From IMG/VR virus record IMGVR_UViG_3300025715_000009, positions 288,001-352,000 of that record: a stretch of 64,000 nucleotides of DNA, one strand, 5' to 3'. Positions 5,260 to 44,777 of this stretch are shown piece by piece (within the stretch, counting starts at the first letter, position 1; each line of letters starts with the position of its first letter). The notes below the pieces were generated by a model. It ran no database searches. It saw only the letters and a list, made by a program, of their open reading frames with translations, and was not told the DNA's origin. A program made the position numbers and the translations under genes. Origin of the DNA: a virus. Taxonomy: Duplodnaviria; Caudoviricetes.

Positions 5260-5264
5260 TAGTG

Positions 5265-5335
5265 TGCCCCATTTGGGAATCGAACCCAAGTAAATAGTTT
5301 TAGAGACTACCGCTTTACCATTAAGCAAATGGAGC
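5265..5335 (-). tRNA. tRNA with CUA anticodon (amber suppressor)
   Basis: GCTCCAT/ATGGGGC acceptor; GTAGT-CTCTAAA-ACTAT anticodon arm; canonical TTCGATT T-loop. Confidence 0.88.
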
Positions 5336-10348: not shown

Positions 10349-11177
10349 GGGCTGAGACTATACCCTTCTCGCTATCACTTTCAAGCCCGTACCTTTGAGG
10401 TGCTACCCTCTCCGTTAAGCTCTTATCCACATCCTCATGGATGTCTGATAGCATGGCTGCCTTTTTTAGAGAGTGGCTTTTCTCTCGTCACAACAAGTTA
10501 ATCAACCTTCCGGTTACCGTCTACCTTGCGAGCAGTAAAGGACCGCTAAGTCCACCGTGCACCTTCCCATCAAACCCTTCCGCCTTGCGAGCTTCCAGGC
10601 TCCAGATTCTCTTTCGAGTCTGGACTTAAGCCATTTTCGCTTGTTGTCGGTCAAGACTTTTGCGTTTTCAATTGTTGGACTCGAACCAACGACCGATTGT
10701 ATTACAAGACAATTGCTCTACCATTGAGCAAAACTGAACGGGTTTCCCCTTGACCACGAGGTGCTTGACCAGTTGCTCCATATCCTTTTGAGATACGGAA
10801 TACAACACCTCGCATACATTTTACCTGCCGGCTACTTTGTGGTTTTTCAAGACCAGGTATTCCCCTGAATCTATCAAACTGCTATTAAGCACTTGTCTGC
10901 AAAGACTCGCACCTAATAACTACTGTTCTCTCTCATAGATAATCAGTTTTGCATGAAGATAATCCCTTGCGAGGAAAAGTTACTCTCACCCGGTTGGCCC
11001 TGAATAACTCTGTCTCTTCCTGATGTCTCTACAAATTCCGCTGGTAGCGAAATCATAGGAGAGTCAGCTTGCTTACATGAACTGTATTACTACAGCGGGA
11101 GGCGTCACCCTTTACCCCTTTATGATTATTGCTAATCACTATTCTTCGCCTTTCGGCAGGACCATAAGCAGCCCTTA
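10349..11177 (-). ncRNA. Large structured ncRNA, GOLLD-like (~830 nt)
   Basis: GC-elevated region lacking a credible ORF, many GNRA hairpins, ends resembling recalled GOLLD termini (GGGCTGCTTATGGTCC... / ...GGGTATAGTCTCAGC), own promoter motif and terminator, embedded tRNA. Confidence 0.7.
10667..10738 (-). tRNA. tRNA-Thr(UGU)-like element with an 8-nt anticodon loop, inside the large ncRNA
   Basis: TTCAGTT/AATTGAA acceptor, ATTGT-CTTGTAAT-ACAAT arm, GTTGG-TTCGAGT-CCAAC T-arm. Confidence 0.7.
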
Positions 11178-11224
11178 ATTAAATTTTCAAAGATCTATTA
11201 GCTTTCGCTCTTTTTTATTATACT

Positions 11225-11237
11225 ATTATATATGCTT
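11225..11237 (-). promoter_or_regulatory. AGCATATATAAT promoter-like motif (representative copy)
   Basis: Motif recurs upstream of many transcription units. Confidence 0.6.
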
Positions 11238-11838
11238 ACTCTAAACATATTTTTTGTAATTCTTCAAAATATTTTCCTTGGGGATGTAATTTTTGATCAA
11301 ATAAAGGAAAAATTTTATTTGAACCAAAAACTATATCTTTCCCATGATGAACAAAGCCCATCCAAACAGTTGGCAATTTTGGAACAAGATCTTTTTTATT
11401 TACATATCTAATGGTTTTAATGGTTGAAAAACAACGCGATACAAACCATTCAAATCTAGGAGAACCGAATGCAATACTTTCTATATCAGAAAAATATTTT
11501 CCATATATTAAATGAAAAAGTTGTGCCCTTCCACCGCCCAAAGAATGTCCTATTACATAAGTTTTTTTATTAAAATCAATTTTTTTACTAATATAATTTT
11601 TCCATGCTTTTCTCATTCCTAATTGAATACCAAGATGAATGAATTTAAAATGATATGGCCATGGTATAAAAGTTAAACTTAAAATATAATCTAATGGTGT
11701 GCTAGATCCATGAAAAGTAATAACTTGATAAGAATCATATTGTTTGACATTACATTCAAAACTTAATTTTTTATTTTCATATTCCCATACAGGATGTAGG
11801 ATGTTTTGTTCAAATAAATCAAGAATAGTTTTATTCAT
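11236..11838 (-). CDS. Class 3 lipase family protein (second copy)
   Basis: GHSLGGG, FGSPR, DLVPKLP. Confidence 0.88.
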   Translation of the reverse strand: MNKTILDLFEQNILHPVWEYENKKLSFECNVKQYDSYQVITFHGSSTPLDYILSLTFIPWPYHFKFIHLGIQLGMRKAWKNYISKKIDFNKKTYVIGHSLGGGRAQLFHLIYGKYFSDIESIAFGSPRFEWFVSRCFSTIKTIRYVNKKDLVPKLPTVWMGFVHHGKDIVFGSNKIFPLFDQKLHPQGKYFEELQKICLE

Positions 11839-12342
11839 CTTTCTCCTTTAAATACTTTTTTACACATTTTAAAGCATTTTCTGTAGCACATCTTGCGGCA
11901 AGACTGTTTGGTGAATGAACATATTGCTCAACTAAGCCAGTAAAAGAATTTAAGATAATAAATTCTACAGGCTTATTTTCTTCTTGAGCTGTTGCCTTTG
12001 TTCTTTCAAGCCAATCTTCATAATTTCTTATCATGGTGTATCCTTATGTATCATCTGGCGTAAATATTTCTATTTTAAAGGCACTTGGTGGAATAGAAAT
12101 TCCTAATTTATCTGCTTGATCTAAAAAACAATCAACACATAAAGACCCACCACCATTATCATTTCGTTGCATTACACTATACCAATATTTATCTTCAATA
12201 AGCCAACATATTCTAAATGATTTGCCACAATTTTCACATGATTCATATGGCCATTTATTAAGAGATAATGAGTTCCATTGTTTGATAAATAACCACTTAA
12301 TACGTCGTAATAATCTAAGAAATAACATTTTTACCTCTTAAA

Positions 12343-12414
12343 TAGCTGGGGCCGGATTCGAACCGACAATCTCAACCTTATGAGGGTTGCAAGATACCAT
12401 TTCTCTACCCAGCG
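12343..12414 (-). tRNA. tRNA-Met(CAU), fMet-like 1:72 mismatch
   Basis: CAACC-CTCATAA-GGTTG arm; C1/T72 mismatch; lacks the 3 G-C anticodon-stem pairs of typical initiators. Confidence 0.85.
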
Positions 12415-12435
12415 TCGTATGCGTATTGAATTTAC

Positions 12436-12507
12436 TAGACCCACACCGAATTGAACGGTGATCTAAACTTTATCAGAGTTTCATACTTACCTTTATACTA
12501 TGGGTCT
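12436..12507 (-). tRNA. tRNA-Ile(GAU) with divergent D-arm
   Basis: AGACCCA/TGGGTCT acceptor; AAACT-CTGATAA-AGTTT arm. Confidence 0.85.
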
Positions 12508-13302
12508 ATGTTCTTCATAAAGAGAAATAAAATCACTACCATATTTCTCTATTACATAATCTAAATATATTTTCATATCATCTTTCTCTAAAACCTTAAG
12601 TCTTTGTTTAAATTGACTTATTTTTGTTATACATTTTTTGTCTTTATATCCTTTTATTTCAAAATATTCTCCATCAATAATAAAATCTGGATAATATTTA
12701 TATTCTTTTCCTTCATATATATAAGTAAATCCAGTAAAATTTCTATTAAATAAAATTCCATGCTCTATATTATAAATAACAAATGCTAATTCCCAACTAC
12801 TTTGACAATAATATCCTTTATACCATCCTCTATGTCCTTTTCCAGACATTTTTCTTAAACCACCACCCCTTGAACAATTTTTAAGCCATTCTTCTTTATG
12901 GTTTTTTTGATATATTGCAAAACCTCCTCTTATTTCTTTGGGTAATTTTTGTAAACGTTTACTTACTTTTTCAGCACTTTTTCTAACTGACTCTGAAGTT
13001 TCTTTAGTTAAACTTTTATTCCACGAAGGTTTGCCAATTTGAAGTTTATGTCTTTTTTCTAAAGATTTAAAATGTCTTTTTCTCCCCTCTTCAGTATGAT
13101 TAATAATAATGTGAGAACATATTCCTTTTTTACATACTAATTTCTGACATTCTGGACATTTATATAATCCTGAAATTTCGTCGTACCATTCTTCATCAAT
13201 TTTTAGTTGATGTTTTTTTTCTTTGAAATGAGATTGAAAATGTCGCTCATAAACAGATAAACTAACCAATCTATTACATACTTCACAATTTTTATATTTC
13301 AT
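12493..13302 (-). CDS. Zn-finger plus PD-(D/E)XK (TnsA-N-like) free-standing endonuclease
   Basis: CEVC...H...H and CPEC...H...H fingers, PSWNK NUMOD-like segment, QSSWE...YYPDFII..EIKGY. Confidence 0.8.
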   Translation of the reverse strand: MKYKNCEVCNRLVSLSVYERHFQSHFKEKKHQLKIDEEWYDEISGLYKCPECQKLVCKKGICSHIIINHTEEGRKRHFKSLEKRHKLQIGKPSWNKSLTKETSESVRKSAEKVSKRLQKLPKEIRGGFAIYQKNHKEEWLKNCSRGGGLRKMSGKGHRGWYKGYYCQSSWELAFVIYNIEHGILFNRNFTGFTYIYEGKEYKYYPDFIIDGEYFEIKGYKDKKCITKISQFKQRLKVLEKDDMKIYLDYVIEKYGSDFISLYEEHRPIV

Positions 13303-13306
13303 ACAA

Positions 13307-13313
13307 TTATCTT
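13307..13313 (-). promoter_or_regulatory. AAGATAA promoter-like motif inside a hairpin that sequesters the start codon
   Basis: ATATTTCATACA (13294-13305) pairs with TGTATGAAATAT (13332-13343). Confidence 0.65.
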
Positions 13314-13373
13314 ATATGGTTAGAGCAATTATGTATGAAATATATAAAAAAATTTACGAATTCCAAAAGGCTG

Positions 13374-13387
13374 TGAGCTAATCCCGC
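13374..13387 (-). pseudogene. Orphan tRNA 5' fragment GCGGGATTAGCTCA
   Basis: 7-nt acceptor strand plus TA plus GCTCA, then abrupt loss of tRNA structure. Confidence 0.55.
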
Positions 13388-13800
13388 ATGTTTTCTAAAT
13401 ATCCTTTGCATCCAAGATCAGTGATCTCTATTTCTAAATACCACCCATGATCCTCTTTTTCAAACTGAATACCACCTTCAAACGGAACAATTGCAAAATT
13501 CAAATTTTCTAAATATGTAGCCAAGTGTTTTGCCATATTATATACATAATCTGATATTACAAAATCTTTAGTCTCTTTAAAAAAATCTATTCTTTCTTGC
13601 AAGTTCATTCTATTTTTTTCTTTATATAAACTGTTTTCGCTAATTTTTGTATTTCTTTTAAATCAACTTCATTTTTGGCTTCAAGTAATAAAGCAACAAT
13701 CATAGCATCAACATCTTTTTTAAGAATGATTTTTTTTGATTGTTCTGTCTGTTCTACTATTTCACCTTTTTCAAAATCATAAATCATACTCATTCCTCTA

Positions 13801-13872
13801 AGCGCCGAGAGGGAGTCGAACCCTCGTCTCCAGCTTGGAAGGCTGGGGTAATAGCCGTTATACGACCGGCGC
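13801..13872 (-). tRNA. tRNA-Gly(UCC)
   Basis: CCAGC-CTTCCAA-GCTGG arm. Confidence 0.95.
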
Positions 13873-13972
13873 AAATTAAGGGGATTTTTTTAACTACGGT
13901 TCCCCTCAAAACCACGTTTAAGATTTGGGCGCATAATGCGCGGCTCACCTTATCAGACACAACGGTCTGATT

Positions 13973-14046
13973 TGTCGGCGATGGGATTTGAACCCATAGG
14001 TCTTGGACTCTGAAACCAAGAAGTCTGCCAATTCCTTCACGCCGAC
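13973..14046 (-). tRNA. tRNA-Leu(CAG), atypical
   Basis: Leu-type D-loop GAATTGGCAGAC; CTTGG-TTTCAGAGT-CCAAG arm (U-U closing pair); short variable arm. Confidence 0.7.
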
Positions 14047-14130
14047 TAGTTCCCAACCTGCTAAACCGTAGGAAATGGTTGGTGTTGGTATGTCATAAAC
14101 ATATTATATCTTGTTTATTTCTCTTCTAAA

Positions 14131-14439
14131 TTATTCGTAGATGAAAAGATTTTTTGTTCTAAGGTTCCATTTGTTTCCATCTTTGAACATTACATTTCTA
14201 TACCCAGGAAGATCTTCATTTCTACTCTCTGCAAAAGCACGAACAAGAGTAGTAGACTTGTTTTCATCTTTGACTCGTAGAATATCATTTGTTTTATCAT
14301 AACAAATCTTACCAATATTCTGCTTGATAAACGCCCGGCTATCATTATCAACAAGCACTTCAAAATTCCTACCCCACCCCCTGCCAACATGTTCAAGAAC
14401 CATCTTTCCACCAGCCATAGACTTAATCTTCATATTCAC
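14131..14439 (-). CDS. Hypothetical protein with a degenerate HNH_3-like C-terminus
   Basis: VMFKDGNKWNLRTKNL resembles V.H.DGN..NN...NL but lacks the catalytic His. Confidence 0.5.
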   Translation of the reverse strand: MNMKIKSMAGGKMVLEHVGRGWGRNFEVLVDNDSRAFIKQNIGKICYDKTNDILRVKDENKSTTLVRAFAESRNEDLPGYRNVMFKDGNKWNLRTKNLFIYE

Positions 14440-14476
14440 TCCTTGATATATATTAGAACTTCTATGAAGTTCGTTT

Positions 14477-14548
14477 TACGCCTACCAGGAATCGAACCTG
14501 GATAATCTGCTTAGAAGGCAGAGACTTTGTCCATTAAGTTATAGGCGC
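14477..14548 (-). tRNA. tRNA-Arg(UCU)
   Basis: TCTGC-CTTCTAA-GCAGA arm. Confidence 0.93.
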
Positions 14549-14574
14549 TCGTTTATTAACGTTTTTAAATATGC

Positions 14575-15510
14575 TCATGGATAATGATTTTCATATAGAT
14601 CAGGATGTTTATTTCTAAATTTTAGATTTTCTTCAGATACATCAAGACAAAAAATTTTTATATGGCTTTTAAAACAAGCGCCAAAATGATAAGCACTAAC
14701 TTTATGAAAATTCATATCATATGGTGGAACTATTTGAGTATAAAAAGAATCATTTTCATATTTACAAAAACTTGAAGATAAGTCAAATACTCTTGAATTA
14801 TCAATAACATCAAAATTAAAATCAAACAAATAATTAAATAAAAATTGATCTACTCCCCATACAATAGGTGCTAACCCTACTTGTATACATTCCTGATATT
14901 GATTTATTTTTTTAATAAAATTATCTCTATTCGCACCAAAATAACAACCCATTATTCCTTTTGTATATATTTTTTTAAACATTAAATTTACTTTATTATA
15001 AAAGGATTCAATTTCATTTTCATCAATAGGGTGTCCTAACCACATGGGTGGATTTAACGTTCCACTAAAAATACAACCATTATCTGGAGTTTTATGATTA
15101 AATAAATCATCAAACCATACGTCTAAATCATATGCAAATATATTATCATATTTTATATTAGATTGAATATAATTTAATGCATCAACATGTCTCCAATACA
15201 TTAACTCTTTATAATCTTGAAAAGCAAAAGTTCTTTCAATATATTTTATTTGTATATCTAATTTTTTTGCTAAATTTCTAATTTTTGAAGGGATAGGTCC
15301 ACCATAAAAAAATATAATTACATCATCATTATATTTTGCAACATGTCTTAAAGAAATCATAAAATCAATCATATGTCCGAGTGAATGATCCATAACATCA
15401 TATCTAAATATAGATTCATTGCTTTGATTTAAAAGTTTAGAATCCAAATATGTTGTTGGTTTTCCATGATTAGATGTTGTGAGTAAAAGACTAGCATAAA
15501 CTAAATTCAT
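14575..15510 (-). CDS. Putative glycosyltransferase (GT-A-like)
   Basis: AYDLDVWF DxD motif and late DQFLFNY motif. Confidence 0.5.
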   Translation of the reverse strand: MNLVYASLLLTTSNHGKPTTYLDSKLLNQSNESIFRYDVMDHSLGHMIDFMISLRHVAKYNDDVIIFFYGGPIPSKIRNLAKKLDIQIKYIERTFAFQDYKELMYWRHVDALNYIQSNIKYDNIFAYDLDVWFDDLFNHKTPDNGCIFSGTLNPPMWLGHPIDENEIESFYNKVNLMFKKIYTKGIMGCYFGANRDNFIKKINQYQECIQVGLAPIVWGVDQFLFNYLFDFNFDVIDNSRVFDLSSSFCKYENDSFYTQIVPPYDMNFHKVSAYHFGACFKSHIKIFCLDVSEENLKFRNKHPDLYENHYP

Positions 15511-15659
15511 TTTGGAAATGTCAATTCCAAGCATCCATCTTCTAATTCTTTAATCAAGACATCATCTCCAGGATGGATATCAAATGTCTTAATTATTTCT
15601 TCTGGAAGAGGAAGCACATATTCGCCTGTTTTTGGATCTATTTCAAGTTTTACTATCAT
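15507..15659 (-). CDS. AbrB/MazE-like small DNA-binding protein (50 aa)
   Basis: MIVKLEIDPKTGEYVLPLPEEIIKTFDIHPGDDVLIKELEDGCLEL. Confidence 0.65.
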   Translation of the reverse strand: MIVKLEIDPKTGEYVLPLPEEIIKTFDIHPGDDVLIKELEDGCLELTFPK

Positions 15660-16778
15660 GTATATAACTATGCTGAAAAAATAGTTAAAATACTCTCTCC
15701 ATACTTATTTAAAAAAGAACGCAATATAATTTTAATAGATGAAATATCAAACCCATTTTTCCAATATTTTGGATTAGAAGATATTTTTTTTCTCCACAAT
15801 AAAAATGCTGATTTAATTTCTTCATCTGAAAATTTGGACATATCTAAAATTAGCTTGTGTTTTGCTTCATATATGTTTGGAGTGTCAAATGCAACTAAAA
15901 CTGGACCTACTACATTCAATTTATCTATTGCTATAATGATGGGGAATGCAAAGCCATAATCATAATATTCAACAAGAGAAAAAGCATCATAATTTAATAA
16001 TCTTTGATTTAAAGGCCAATTTGTAACCATTAATAATGCAGGATCAGTTTTTGAGTAAGATGATATATTTGGCAAAGTATCTAAAAATGCTTGAGCTGCT
16101 ATTTCTCCTCTTTTATGACTATGTAAAGTAAAAAGAACATAACCATAACATCCATAGCCTGGTTCTTGTTGGCCTCTAATAATATAACTACCTACTGGTA
16201 TTCTATATTCTGGGCTTTGGACTGTAAATTCTGAATTTAAAACACAAGATGCTAATAATAAATAAATAAGACTAATCAATATTCTCATTTTTTCTTCCTG
16301 CACAAAATAGATGATATAATTGTAATTATACTAACATAAAAAAGAGCTATAAGACCAATAGCTCCTGCATTTAGAGGATTAAGAGAATCGCTTAATAAAA
16401 ACACTGTAATTGAAGTTAAAATAAGAGATAAGAATATATTAAAAGGAAGTGATTTCATAAGATTATCTTATGAAAAAAGAATAAATTATGATTTTTTTCT
16501 TTCGTACCCTAATTCTGTTATAGCATTACGATATTTATTTAATCTATTTTCCATAGCTATACCACGTTCTTTCATATCATCTAAAAGAGAAAATGCTCGA
16601 TCTGTTATTTCTATTAATTGTTCTTGTAGTTTTGGTATTTCACTAATAGTAGCGTCAGTGAAATTTAATTCTCGTATAGCTTCTATTTCATATCTAAGAT
16701 GATCATTTAAATGACAAATATATTGTTTTTGCTTTATAGGTTCAACTTTCTTTCTAGGCATACAAAACTCCTATAAAT

Positions 16779-17456
16779 TTAAATTCCAAAAATTTGCTGG
16801 AATTTTTTAAAGACATCATTATCAACAAAATAATCTATATAATCATAAAATTTTGATTCAAACATTAGCTGATCTTTTAAATTACTATTTTTATAAATAG
16901 AAAAACAATTATCTAATAAAAAAATTTTAATGTATTTATTATCTAGTTTAATTTTATCAATATAAATTCGTTCTTCGCCTTCTTTGTTTATTAAATTATA
17001 TAAATAATTATATATTTTATTGTGTAATTTTTTATAATCAAAATTTGAAAAATTTTCTTTATATTTTTTAACGTTATTAATAATATCTTTTTTATTATCT
17101 AATAGTTTATATTTGTTTAAAATTTCTTCTATTTCTTTTTCAAAATTTAAAACCGGTTCATTTATTGGTTTTGCTTTTATATTATGGATTTTATCATTTA
17201 CAATATCAAATTGTATTTCAAATCTAGCAACAAGATTTTTTGAATTAGGGCCAGTTATTGATTCAATATCTTTAGATCCAGATGGTCTTATAACAGATAT
17301 TTGATCTAAATTTTGATTTAAGTTAGAATAAGTACTTCCAGATTTAATATAACCAGATTTTAAGATATTTAAAAAACCTATCATATTTGTGTAATGATAA
17401 AATAGTTTTTCTGAGCCAGATTCTAATAATGTGCCCAATAGCTCATCAAAATTCAT
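16779..17456 (-). CDS. Putative virion-internal protein
   Basis: N-terminus MNFDELLGTLLE followed by LFYHYT. Confidence 0.5.
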   Translation of the reverse strand: MNFDELLGTLLESGSEKLFYHYTNMIGFLNILKSGYIKSGSTYSNLNQNLDQISVIRPSGSKDIESITGPNSKNLVARFEIQFDIVNDKIHNIKAKPINEPVLNFEKEIEEILNKYKLLDNKKDIINNVKKYKENFSNFDYKKLHNKIYNYLYNLINKEGEERIYIDKIKLDNKYIKIFLLDNCFSIYKNSNLKDQLMFESKFYDYIDYFVDNDVFKKFQQIFGI

Positions 17457-17469
17457 GTTGCCTCTTTTA

Positions 17470-17558
17470 CGGAGAGAGAGGGATTTGAACCCCCGAACGG
17501 ATTGCTCCGTTGCCTGATTTCAAGTCAGGTGCAATCAGCCAGACTCTGCCATCTCTCC
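17470..17558 (-). tRNA. tRNA-Ser(UGA)
   Basis: CCTGA-CTTGAAA-TCAGG arm, long variable arm. Confidence 0.95.
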
Positions 17559-17564
17559 ATTTAA

Positions 17565-17635
17565 TTCGCCCAAATGGATTCGAACCACTACTAAAAGCTC
17601 CAAAGGCTCTTGTGCTACCGTTACACCATGGGCGA
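17565..17635 (-). tRNA. tRNA-Gln(UUG)
   Basis: AGAGC-CTTTGGA-GCTTT arm. Confidence 0.9.
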
Positions 17636-18012
17636 ATGTTTAATCGTTAAAATCTGAAGGCCTTCTTTCTTGTCTTTTGCATTTTTCACATTCTGCAAAA
17701 TCTTTTTTTCTTCCTTCTATAAAAGAAGTATGCATTTTGATTTCTCCACCACACTTGCAATAAAATCTTTGAGTTGTCGATGAAGTACGCGAGTTTTTAG
17801 ATACAGCCATTTATTAATTCCTCTCTTAATTTTTGTTTCCATCTTCTGGATAAACGATGTAAAAATTTTTGTCTTGTTGAATGATTGTGTAAATTCTTTT
17901 TAGGATTAGAATGATTGTGTCCACCACAACAACAATATTTATCACTATGATCACAACCATGATTTGAATCAGATGGAAAGAAAGAATCAGATTTCACATA
18001 TCCTCCAAATAA

Positions 18013-18050
18013 AGCCCCCGCGGTGAATCGAACACCGGACAAGCAGTTTA
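18013..18050 (-). pseudogene. Orphan 3' half of a tRNA (Thr-type)
   Basis: TAA-ACTGC-TTGTC-CGGTG-TTCGATT-CACCG-CGGGGGC-T begins 2 nt after the HNH stop codon. Confidence 0.75.
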
Positions 18051-18052
18051 AT

Positions 18053-18586
18053 TTAATAACTTTTTCCTTCTTTATATCTTTGACGTCTATAGTGCCTTCC
18101 TTTTCCTCTATTTCTACTTTTATATGTACCAAGTTGTGAATCACAGTTTGAACAAATCATTCTTAAATTTTCTCTAGAATTATTTGAACTGTTGCCATCT
18201 ATATGGTCTAATATAAATGGCATTGGTTTTCCATTCCATATTGGCTCTATACCACAAATAGCACATTTACTATTTTGTTCTTCAAGAATAAATGGTCTTA
18301 ATGATTTTGTCCATTTTCCATTTTCTTTCCATTTTTGAATGGCTTTTTCTTGTTCTTGTTTTCCATTTTTTTTACCGCCTTTACTTCTTTCATCAAATGA
18401 AAAACAATGATGTTTTCTGTTTTCTTTAGGAACCCAACATTCTCTACCTTTTAATGACAAAGAAACTTTTTTATTTATTTCTTCTCTTCTTTCTTTTGTA
18501 GCAAAACTTTTAGCACATTTAATTGAACAAAATCTTCCAGAACCGTAAGATCCGCCATGCTCATTACCACAGTTTTCACATTTCAT
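18053..18586 (-). CDS. HNH homing-type endonuclease with N-terminal Zn finger
   Basis: CENCG..GSYGSGRFCS..C; CAICG...LDHIDGNSSNNSRENLRMICSNCDSQ. Confidence 0.9.
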   Translation of the reverse strand: MKCENCGNEHGGSYGSGRFCSIKCAKSFATKERREEINKKVSLSLKGRECWVPKENRKHHCFSFDERSKGGKKNGKQEQEKAIQKWKENGKWTKSLRPFILEEQNSKCAICGIEPIWNGKPMPFILDHIDGNSSNNSRENLRMICSNCDSQLGTYKSRNRGKGRHYRRQRYKEGKSY

Positions 18587-18656
18587 TTTGAACTCCTCTG
18601 TTGAATATAATTTATCTTATACTCAAGAGTTCAAATAATCAAATATATTTTAAAAA

Positions 18657-18729
18657 AGCCCTGACCAGGAATTGAACCCGGATCTGAAGATTACAAGTCT
18701 ACTGTACTAGCCATTTGTACTATCAAGGC
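18657..18729 (-). tRNA. tRNA-Thr(UGU)
   Basis: GTAGA-CTTGTAA-TCTTC arm; GCCTTGA/TCAGGGC acceptor. Confidence 0.9.
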
Positions 18730-18784
18730 AAATTAATGTATCTAATGTATCCACAAATGGTTTCTCCAATAAAAACCATATGAT

Positions 18785-18856
18785 TCGGGGATGTAGGATT
18801 CGAACCTCTTCTTCTGGTCCCAAACCAGACGTGTCTCCCGTAGCACTGCATCCCCG
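18785..18856 (-). tRNA. tRNA-Pro(UGG), atypical (best folded as 8/4)
   Basis: TCTGG-TTTGGGA-CCAGA arm; CGGGGATG/CATCCCCG acceptor. Confidence 0.75.
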
Positions 18857-18917
18857 GATTAAACTATAGCATATAATAATATATGCATTTATCTTGTAAA
18901 ATAAGAAAGATAAATGT

Positions 18918-19250
18918 ATGAAACTAAAACAAATTTTATCTGAATTAGCCCAGTTAGAATATTCTTCTACTAAAGGCTCACAAAAACAATTATCTCAATC
19001 AGGAATTGAAAATAAATTTTTAGAAACAGTTGAAGCTGCTATAGCTGCAAGTCCTGAATTACAAAAAATGTTTGATGTAGAACAAGAACCTTATGATGTC
19101 CAATTAGAAAGACAAGGTGGAAATATTAAAATTATTCTCAATCCAGAACATGGTCAAAAACAAAGTATAGCAACATTTCCAATGTCATATTTAAGTAAGT
19201 ATTTTAACAATCCAAAAGGTTTAATTTCTTTATTGCTAAAACGTGGTTAA
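18918..19250 (+). CDS. Putative virion-internal protein
   Basis: AAGATAA 4 nt upstream of the ATG; N-terminus MKLKQILSE. Confidence 0.6.
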   Translation: MKLKQILSELAQLEYSSTKGSQKQLSQSGIENKFLETVEAAIAASPELQKMFDVEQEPYDVQLERQGGNIKIILNPEHGQKQSIATFPMSYLSKYFNNPKGLISLLLKRG

Positions 19251-19507
19251 AAAACTGTTTCCTCTACTTTAACTGGGATATGTTCATCTTGGCAACATTG
19301 TTCTATTTCTTGAATTGTTTGCTTGGCATTTACATCAATAAAGTGATCTACATACTCACAAAAATAATCATTTAACTCTGAATCATAATAAAATGCAATA
19401 CAATCATATCCAATTTGTATATCATCTTTAAAAAGATTTCTTATGGTGAGATTTTTTATAGAAACAGAATCATCATTACAATAAAAATTTAATTTATCTT
19501 TTAACAT

Positions 19508-19870
19508 TTACCACCACTCTTTATTATATGAAGTTAGAATAACATCCCAAATTTTATATTTTCTTGAATCAGGATTTGCATAAACTCTATCAAGCACAAT
19601 AATCATATCTTGAACAGTTCCAGAATATGTAGCCCATTCAAATAAAAGAGATCTAAGTGATTCAGCACTCCCAGTTAGTTTATCAGACCCTTGCATTTGT
19701 CCTAATAGCTGTCTTAAACTATCTAAGCCACTAAACCAACCTAAAACATATTTGGTTTTTTCCATACTTGTCCAGCTTACCCAAGTATAACCATCATTAT
19801 CTAATACTGATTGAGCAAAAACAAGATTTACAAGCAAACAAAACAATACAACAAGAAAGGCTTTTCTCAT
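19508..19870 (-). CDS. Secreted protein, paralog of 21988..22425
   Basis: Signal peptide MRKAFLVV...VFAQ; shared G..WV.....K..V.G.F.GL, WA and Y.K.WW motifs. Confidence 0.7.
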   Translation of the reverse strand: MRKAFLVVLFCLLVNLVFAQSVLDNDGYTWVSWTSMEKTKYVLGWFSGLDSLRQLLGQMQGSDKLTGSAESLRSLLFEWATYSGTVQDMIIVLDRVYANPDSRKYKIWDVILTSYNKEWW

Positions 19871-20146
19871 GTTTTCTCCTTGTTTATAAATATGCTTAAT
19901 TGATATTAATATTTGTTTCTGTATAATCAAATTTTTTCTTTATACTTAGCTTTATATCTTCACTTTTTTCAGAATGGGGGATATATATTGAATGTGTTTT
20001 AGTTTTAAAATTAATTGTAAACCCACATCCAACATAACCATATTTTGTTTCACAGCATGATTTAATATTATTTTTTTTATATAAATTATGAATTATAATG
20101 TTATCGATCTCATTGTTTTTTATTTCACCAAAAACGTTTTTCATGT

Positions 20147-27907: not shown

Positions 27908-27964
27908 ATAATTATCTTATATAAACAAATCGAACCATGTGTTTTCTATATGTTATTTTTTCTT

Positions 27965-44703: not shown

Positions 44704-44777
44704 AGGCCCAGACAGGAATTGAACACTGTGATTCTATCAATTGCAGTTGATTTGCCTTCCCACTTGGCTACTGGGCC
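44704..44777 (-). tRNA. tRNA-Cys(GCA), degenerate
   Basis: GGCCCAG/CTGGGCC-T acceptor; 6-nt CTGCAA loop; bulged T-stem. Confidence 0.6.

Follow-up and report, generated by a model that had tools for sequence, protein, structure and literature searches.

A PD-(D/E)XK nuclease and tRNA-Ile cassette as the probable replacement of a resident tRNA-Ile gene in the tRNA array of a large phage

Introduction

Large phages carry dozens of tRNA genes, and the gain and reshuffling of these sets are poorly understood. SegB set a precedent, as this homing nuclease is able to move tRNA genes from one T-even phage to another. T4 SegB is a GIY-YIG nuclease that is encoded in a tRNA cluster, recognises a conserved T-loop motif of tRNA genes, cuts these genes there and is inherited preferentially with its tRNA region; its stop codon abuts a tRNA, and processing of that tRNA includes the end of the SegB open reading frame (ORF) (PMC2330249). 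Homologues of SegB are found together with tRNA genes and exploit tRNA microhomology (PMC13096335). Here we analysed a 64,000-nucleotide (nt) stretch of phage DNA (the window), bases 288001-352000 of a 388-kb IMG/VR phage record, in which a nuclease gene and a tRNA-Ile(GAT) gene follow the 5' stub of another tRNA-Ile(GAT). We found that a 22-nt leader block, the gene for a zinc-finger/NUMOD3-like PD-(D/E)XK nuclease and the cargo tRNA-Ile(GAT) form a probably mobile unit, for which SegB is the closest known system. The locus as a whole is best explained, with high probability, by the replacement of a resident tRNA-Ile(GAT) by this unit through a putative cut in or beside the D arm followed by repair-copying.

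Other described nucleases offer further points of comparison. SegF and SegG of T4 and F-TflI, F-TflII and F-TflIV of the T5 tRNA region, all of them cited in PMC2330249 and PMC13096335, reportedly carry out intronless homing and cause marker exclusion. I-TevI is said to repress itself through an operator that mimics its homing site. I-Ssp6803I reportedly is a PD-(D/E)XK homing endonuclease encoded in a tRNA-fMet intron.

Results

The window has a G+C content of 30%. The phage contains 59 tRNA genes, all on the minus strand, and its DNA matches are weak and are to Lak-type megaphages. Read along the minus strand, the locus consists of the end of a 76-amino-acid (aa) ORF, a 14-nt stub, a 71-nt leader, a 269-aa ORF, tRNA-Ile(GAT) and tRNA-Met. 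All five elements named by an earlier sequence-only reading, namely the stub, the inverted 11-mer, the motif AAGATAAT, the nuclease and the tRNA-Ile, were found at their places on this strand. The elements on which the main argument rests are the following:

13374..13387, minus strand: 5' stub of the resident tRNA-Ile(GAT), tRNA positions 1-14, GCGGGATTAGCTCA (comparison with L102 and L091)
12422..13373, minus strand: inserted cassette with spacers, 952 nt, in place of 58 nt (tRNA positions 15 to ~72; BLAST against L102)
13316..13337, minus strand: cassette-specific conserved 22-nt block, which contains the inverted D-arm 11-mer (comparison with L004 and L091)
12493..13302, minus strand: nuclease gene, 269 aa (ORF and alignment of homologues)
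12435..12508, minus strand: cargo tRNA-Ile(GAT) (ARAGORN; Rfam, 60.4 bits)
13378..13608, minus strand: 76-aa orphan ORF, upstream flank outside the insert, with its stop codon within the stub (same TAG in L102)
12343..12414, minus strand: tRNA-Met(CAT), downstream flank, common to the empty allele (ARAGORN; L102)

Because the 76-aa protein is an orphan, the empty allele was traced through a one-residue variant of it (exact-sequence variant P0121), which is encoded on a 2.8-kb contig of a sibling strain (L102). BLAST aligned L102 674-1125 with window 13825-13374 at 98.5% identity and L102 1184-1759 with window 12421-11847 at 99.1% identity, and between these two segments lie 58 nt in L102 versus 952 nt in the window (12422-13373). 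The left breakpoint of the homology is the last base of the stub, 13374, and 155 nt separate the 76-aa gene from a 94-aa gene in L102. The stub of L102, the 58 nt and two further bases make up a tRNA-Ile(GAT) according to both ARAGORN and Rfam, indicating that the stub is a real tRNA-Ile remnant. Since the window lacks these 58 nt, L102 is not a deletion product of the window, and the window state therefore is a replacement. One locus with flanks of 98.5-99.1% identity thus differs between the two strains in the presence of the nuclease gene, and both allelic states, filled and empty, exist. The filled allele was found on ten contigs from several samples, ERZ761563 and SRR5007146 among them, with the nuclease ORF intact and identical in all 10. 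The sequence-only reading had left the isotype of the stub unproven, and had proposed to search for the empty allele and to see whether relatives lack a tRNA at the stub position; the sibling supplies that allele and carries a tRNA-Ile(GAT) gene at exactly this position.

Further searches were carried out around the same flanks. An exact-pattern search of IMG/VR for a hypothetical empty allele, located immediately downstream of the 76-aa ORF and having a canonical D loop, gave no match, tBLASTn with the neighbouring lipase gene found no syntenic phage, and no relatives emerged when IMG/VR was scanned with the nuclease or the 76-aa protein as single queries. The 14 nt of the stub also encode the final codons and the stop of the 76-aa gene, which in both alleles is a TAG made of tRNA positions 8-10, and this overlap may be a reason why the first 14 nt were retained. 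Upstream of 13825 the homology between L102 and the window is lost: L102 1-673 has no match in window 13001-20000, a stretch that holds tRNA-Gly and tRNA-Leu genes, so that the two strains differ by at least one further rearrangement of the array.

The same gene evidently occurs in unrelated genomic contexts, as judged from two relatives, L004 and L091. The L004 nuclease is 68% identical to that of the window and is preceded by a near-identical 22-nt block ahead of the gene-start motif, in flanks unrelated to those of the window. It is likewise overlapped by a tRNA-Ile(GAT), whose acceptor stem is the same as the window's and whose D arm is similar. L091 (66% identical) shows the order 24-nt stub, tRNA-Ile with an odd D arm, block, nuclease and T-arm/acceptor remnant. 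Its stub (66-89) is the 14 nt of the window extended to 24 nt, through GGTTAGA, and its 3' remnant (925-950) consists of a T arm and an acceptor strand that pairs with the stub. The absence of a clear 3' remnant, as claimed by the earlier reading, thus holds for the window and not for this relative. Intact phage genes that start with a 26-nt extension of the stub are tRNA-Ile(GAT) in 5/8 cases, and these share their 3' acceptor strand with the L091 remnant; the remaining 3/8 are tRNA-Val with other 3' strands.

In this clade the stubs stop in the D arm or shortly past it. Beside the closest nucleases the stubs end at about tRNA positions 14, 23 and 24. In L092, a more distant relative (49% identical), the 5' stub is different and again stops within the D arm, and L093, L004 and L091 contain further D-arm fragments that end just after the D stem, at about position 28. 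D-arm DNA had been proposed as the target of the nuclease; the stub ends, the D-arm fragments and the match of the inverted copy to the canonical D arm lend this target indirect support, and the resident gene of L102, which is without the motif, speaks against it. Downstream of their cassettes, L004 (5770-5900) and L091 (950-1090) also share a conserved pair of older tRNA remnants, consisting of a tRNA 3' end and then a 5' stub ending just after the D arm. The acceptor strands of this pair could pair via G3-U70 (alanine-like), and an 8-nt inverted repeat, ACATGAAC / GTTCATGT, brackets the pair.

We examined the nuclease by motif, profile and fold. The protein contains two C2H2-like zinc fingers, a NUMOD3-like WNK..TKET segment and a C-terminal PD-(D/E)XK domain. 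Residues E171, P205-D206, E215 and K217 (E...PD...ExK) are invariant among 28 homologues, and the alignment shows that the N-terminal zinc fingers are variable and that the WNKGLTKET segment and the C-terminal domain are conserved. The best sequence-profile match of the family profile is T7 endonuclease I (PDB 1m0d) at E 1e-4. Pfam gave only sub-threshold zinc-finger matches and PHROGs weak 'endonuclease' matches; the protein is not recognised by Pfam and NCBI-style family models, and neither Pfam nor PHROGs gave a match to a GIY-YIG domain. Among 5.8 billion proteins searched, 155 relatives were found, some of which contain NUMOD3, C2H2 or phage endonuclease I domains. The AlphaFold model has a mean predicted local distance difference test (pLDDT) score of 86, rising above 90 over residues 160-260. 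Its fold matches, at Z 4.5-5.7, include TnsA (5.7), Bax1 (5.5), I-Bth0305I (5.0), VRR-NUC and Vsr, and T7 endonuclease I scored 3.5; Foldseek with the whole multidomain model found no match in PDB at E 0.001 or better. An alpha-beta PD-(D/E)XK core with modular DNA-binding additions is the build of a homing endonuclease, and motif and profile, together with the middling fold matches, agree with the earlier assignment of the ORF as a nuclease of the homing type.

Two paralogues are encoded in the same genome, both in tRNA arrays. One of them, the intact PD-(D/E)XK gene L003 (363560-364300), extends into a tRNA-Met with its last codons. The other (L002, G000:C1:354700-355700) lies just before tRNA-Ile(UAU) and has the same zinc-finger/NUMOD3-like N-terminus with a different C-terminal domain, an architecture that points to domain shuffling.

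The cargo tRNA-Ile(GAT) scores 60.4 bits in Rfam and has a D stem of GUAU/GUAU, made up of two A-U and two G-U pairs. The last part of the nuclease ORF, with the stop codon, overlaps the first 16 nt of this tRNA. Across six nuclease-linked tRNA-Ile(GAT) genes, compensatory changes were found in 18/22 pairs, indicating that the cloverleaf is kept by structural selection and that the six are working tRNAs and not debris. The D-arm 11-mer is missing from the cargo tRNA. The earlier proposal that the linked tRNA-Ile is a replacement without the consensus D arm is supported by these findings, as the gene looks functional.

Members of the nuclease family are associated with tRNA arrays beyond this phage. 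A relative of the nuclease is encoded at 289 places in IMG/VR, and tRNA genes are present at 57/62 of the IMG/VR family loci examined. At 32/62 loci, a tRNA on the same strand starts between -30 and +150 nt, counted from where the matched region ends, and this start often lies within the last codons. Pieces of tRNA that ARAGORN had not called were found in 13/56 upstream flanks and 9/56 downstream flanks, compared with 1/56 ORF interiors. At several loci (L012, L059, L064 and L027) a 5' tRNA half stops right after the anticodon, just before the ORF, and at L059 the order is the 5' half of the old tRNA-Ile, the nuclease, a complete new tRNA-Ile(GAT) and the old 3' half. A split tRNA-Ser was also observed around a 180-aa family member (L017, 2440-3045): its 5' part reaches the anticodon stem and is followed by the ORF, with a Shine-Dalgarno-like AAGGAG, then by the T arm and acceptor, and then by a complete tRNA-Ser(GCU).

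We investigated the leader, which contains the following elements in addition to the 22-nt block:

13317-13327, read on the plus strand: inverted 11-mer TGGTTAGAGCA, within the 22-nt block
13306..13313, minus strand: gene-start motif AAGATAAT, genome-general, 3 nt before the ATG (genome count)
13293..13344, minus strand: window-specific hairpin in which 13344-13332 pairs with 13305-13293, a perfect 13-bp inverted repeat, and which buries the start codon

The 22-nt block is nearly identical in the window, L004 and L091, across proteins of 66-68% identity and unrelated flanks, and its offset from the ATG is fixed (23-26 nt upstream). Its three known copies stem from Logan, ENA and this genome, and the block pattern gave no match in IMG/VR or JGI metagenomes. 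This conservation and the position beside the gene start point to a function. The inverted 11-mer, TGGTTAGAGCA, occurs once in the 388-kb genome versus 0.11 expected; shuffling of the leader (below) and the shared offset in the three cassettes indicate that it is more than a chance sequence.

AAGATAAT, which the sequence-only reading had listed as a feature of the locus, proved to be a genome-wide gene-start motif. It is followed by an ATG after 1-6 nt in 35/117 genomic copies (an example copy lies at window 27911-27918), it also precedes the nuclease of the Val locus, and a start motif of this type is present in L004, L091, L092, L033 and L078. It looks like a gene-start signal of this phage and its relatives and not a part of the cassette. 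An extension of the inverted tRNA copy to 22 nt (18/22 match) was rejected because the extra part is this motif.

It is quite possible, though short of probable, that the block is conserved for a reason other than binding, either as a leader RNA element or as a scar of an old inverted duplication of the target that has been kept by linkage. An RNA element could occlude the start codon, pair with the stub or serve as a processing site of the poly-tRNA transcript, and the likeness to the D arm would then have no regulatory meaning. The 13-bp inverted repeat that buries the ATG in the window fits such an element. So do the pairing of stub and block over ~20 nt around the odd tRNA-Ile of L091 (minimum free energy z -2.3) and a small hairpin over the ATG with two covarying pairs among the three leaders; T4 segB and intron endonucleases are controlled by such hairpins (PMC2330249). 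However, the inverted repeat is not kept in L004 or L091, no structure is common to all three leaders, and the consensus of the small hairpin reaches only -3.7 kcal/mol. The shared hairpin leaves out most of the strictly conserved bases, which are the 11-mer and those 5' of it, and a neutral scar would be expected to decay at such divergence.

A second possibility, put forward by the earlier reading and reasonable though less than probable, is that the 11-mer at 13317-13327 is an operator, at which the nuclease would bind an uncleavable mimic of its target beside its own gene start and repress itself like I-TevI. The sole empty allele is without the motif, and more distant family members have no target copies before the ATG. 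A weak sigma-70-like site would place the transcript start at the block in the window, but L004 and L091 do not share it, and such sites turn up at least as often in shuffled sequence. The 11-mer itself argues for an operator: it matches 11/11 bases of the D arm typical of phage tRNA-Ile(GAT), a match to the canonical phage tRNA-Ile that 0/1000 shuffles of the 71-nt leader equalled. GGTTAGAGC is enriched in phage tRNA-Ile(GAT), being present in 4/16 of these genes versus 5/492 other tRNAs, and the match spans the point where the L091 stub breaks. The near-invariance of the block at a fixed offset and its position adjoining the gene-start motif count in the same direction.

The absence of GGTTAGAGC from the 59 tRNAs of the phage was considered as a sign of avoidance and rejected, as the motif is rare (9/508) and about one copy would be expected. 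An inverted CTCTAACC was observed 68 nt before the nuclease ATG of L014, which is 50% identical over the nuclease domain; this is a single 8-mer and may be due to chance. A T-loop-like motif (GTTCGA/GTTCAA) followed by AT-rich sequence occurs alone in the leader of 14/56 family members versus 4/56 ORF interiors, and lies 23-59 nt before the ATG in L033, L036, L041, L047, L052, L065, L066, L079 and others. It may be a stub end or a target mimic in clades that read the T loop.

Three unusual tRNAs were called by ARAGORN on the minus strand of the window (5264-5335, 10666-10738 and 44704-44777), one of the suppressor type whose CUA anticodon reads TAG, another whose anticodon has 4 nt (tgta) and a third whose anticodon has 2 nt. 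Treating TAG as open gave no clear lengthening of ORFs in the window. Read-through of the TAG of the 76-aa ORF was set aside, as it adds only 8 codons and has no consequence for the locus.

Discussion

The event at this locus is a well-documented one, a homing-type replacement of a tRNA gene, of the SegB kind. In the mechanism that we propose, the nuclease would cut the tRNA-Ile genes of phages that lack the cassette, in the D arm or beside it, and the break would be repaired from a cassette-bearing genome during co-infection, via short tRNA homologies. Repair would bring in the nuclease together with the site-free tRNA-Ile, which would restore decoding, and the leader and tRNA processing at the 3' end would hold the nuclease at a low level.

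Several points weigh against this account. We infer both mobility and target from comparative anatomy. A single empty-allele contig was found (2.8 kb, from one sample, SRR28047797), and its resident tRNA-Ile is weak: the Rfam score is 29.1 bits, where the threshold is 29, the acceptor stem and the D stem each contain two mispairs, and GG is missing from the D loop. This gene is without GGTTAGAGC and has nothing in common with the 22-nt block. The stubs of the window and L102 differ at position 6, where the window agrees with L091 and canonical tRNA-Ile, and the stub may have arrived with donor DNA instead of being the recipient's own. Mismatches in the flanks of the window and L102 show no clustering toward the junctions and hence no co-conversion gradient. 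The structural matches of the nuclease are middling, at Z 5-6. For L102, there are three readings: the invaded ancestor may have carried a canonical D arm, with L102 as a decayed or escape form; the stub may have come from the donor; or the site may be other than the 11-mer.

It is very improbable that the likeness of the stub to a tRNA is a chance feature of the tail of the 76-aa ORF and that the nuclease is a non-mobile housekeeping enzyme of the tRNA array, acting in recombination or repair or in the processing of tRNA transcripts. The empty allele shows that the stub starts a tRNA gene; the nuclease is present in one sibling and missing from the other, the cassette recurs in unrelated contexts, and DNA-binding modules are shuffled among family members. 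On the other side, TAGCTCA alone is not unusually rare in the genome (18 seen versus 38 expected), and T7 endonuclease I, which the nuclease core resembles, is a junction resolvase. Endonuclease-encoding group I introns are known from bacterial tRNA genes, but a self-splicing intron that encodes the nuclease, with the stub and the downstream sequence as tRNA exons, can be practically dismissed, as 11000-15000 gave no intron family match at E up to 10, a 3' exon is missing from the window, the tRNA is interrupted at position 14 and not in the anticodon loop, the insert has a complete tRNA of its own, and L102 shows that 58 nt of tRNA were removed.

The replacement account may be extended to the whole family, an extension that we offer tentatively and think rather unlikely in full. 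The family would then be a general engine of phage tRNA turnover, which combines clade-specific cuts in tRNA genes with the supply of a site-free isoacceptor, and the nuclease described here would also read the inverted copy in its leader. The cut would fall in the D arm in this clade and in the anticodon loop in others, and the leader copy would keep the nuclease below the level of self-damage.

At this locus, a nuclease family other than that of SegB would have erased a tRNA gene and supplied a structurally different tRNA with the same anticodon in one step. If general, such events would explain why phage tRNA arrays are littered with tRNA fragments, why many phage tRNAs have odd D arms (to escape the nuclease) and why the arrays turn over so fast. 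The target-like motif in the leader bears on whether autoregulation by target mimicry exists beyond I-TevI. The combination of short, modular DNA-binding units with a compact nuclease is of possible practical interest for site-specific cutters.

A limited literature search found no papers on a PD-(D/E)XK zinc-finger family in phage tRNA arrays or on cassettes of a nuclease plus an isoacceptor. What is new at this locus is the empty allele, the two foreign copies of the cassette and the conserved block with the inverted D-arm sequence.

Compared with SegB of T4 and T6, the nuclease described here is likewise encoded by a free-standing gene in a phage tRNA array, and its ORF ends at or in the next tRNA. 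Both contain NUMOD3-type DNA-binding parts, and the carriage of linked tRNA genes into the recipient, the targeting of tRNA genes through a conserved tRNA motif and the use of tRNA-gene microhomology in repair would also be shared. The two differ in that SegB is a GIY-YIG enzyme that reads a T-loop motif, whereas the nuclease here combines PD-(D/E)XK with C2H2-like zinc fingers and the breakpoints point to the D arm. The cargo here, moreover, is an isoacceptor of the destroyed gene, of which a stub remains, and a conserved copy of the presumed target, in inverted orientation, lies in the leader in this clade.

As with SegF, SegG and the F-Tfl enzymes, the nuclease gene adjoins a putatively resistant allele of the gene that it would cut, and both would be co-converted into sensitive genomes. 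Those systems produce clean conversions between homologous flanks, whereas here the victim is largely deleted and is replaced by a very different tRNA with the same anticodon. The nuclease start is closely preceded by what would be a partial copy of the target, an arrangement that recalls I-TevI; unlike the I-TevI operator, this copy is inverted, measures only 11-13 nt and has no conserved overlapping promoter. I-Ssp6803I, I-Bth0305I (PDB 3r3p) and T7 endonuclease I (PDB 1m0d) probably share the restriction-endonuclease-like catalytic fold with the nuclease described here, which differs from them in not being intron-encoded and in containing zinc-finger and NUMOD3-like modules that they lack.

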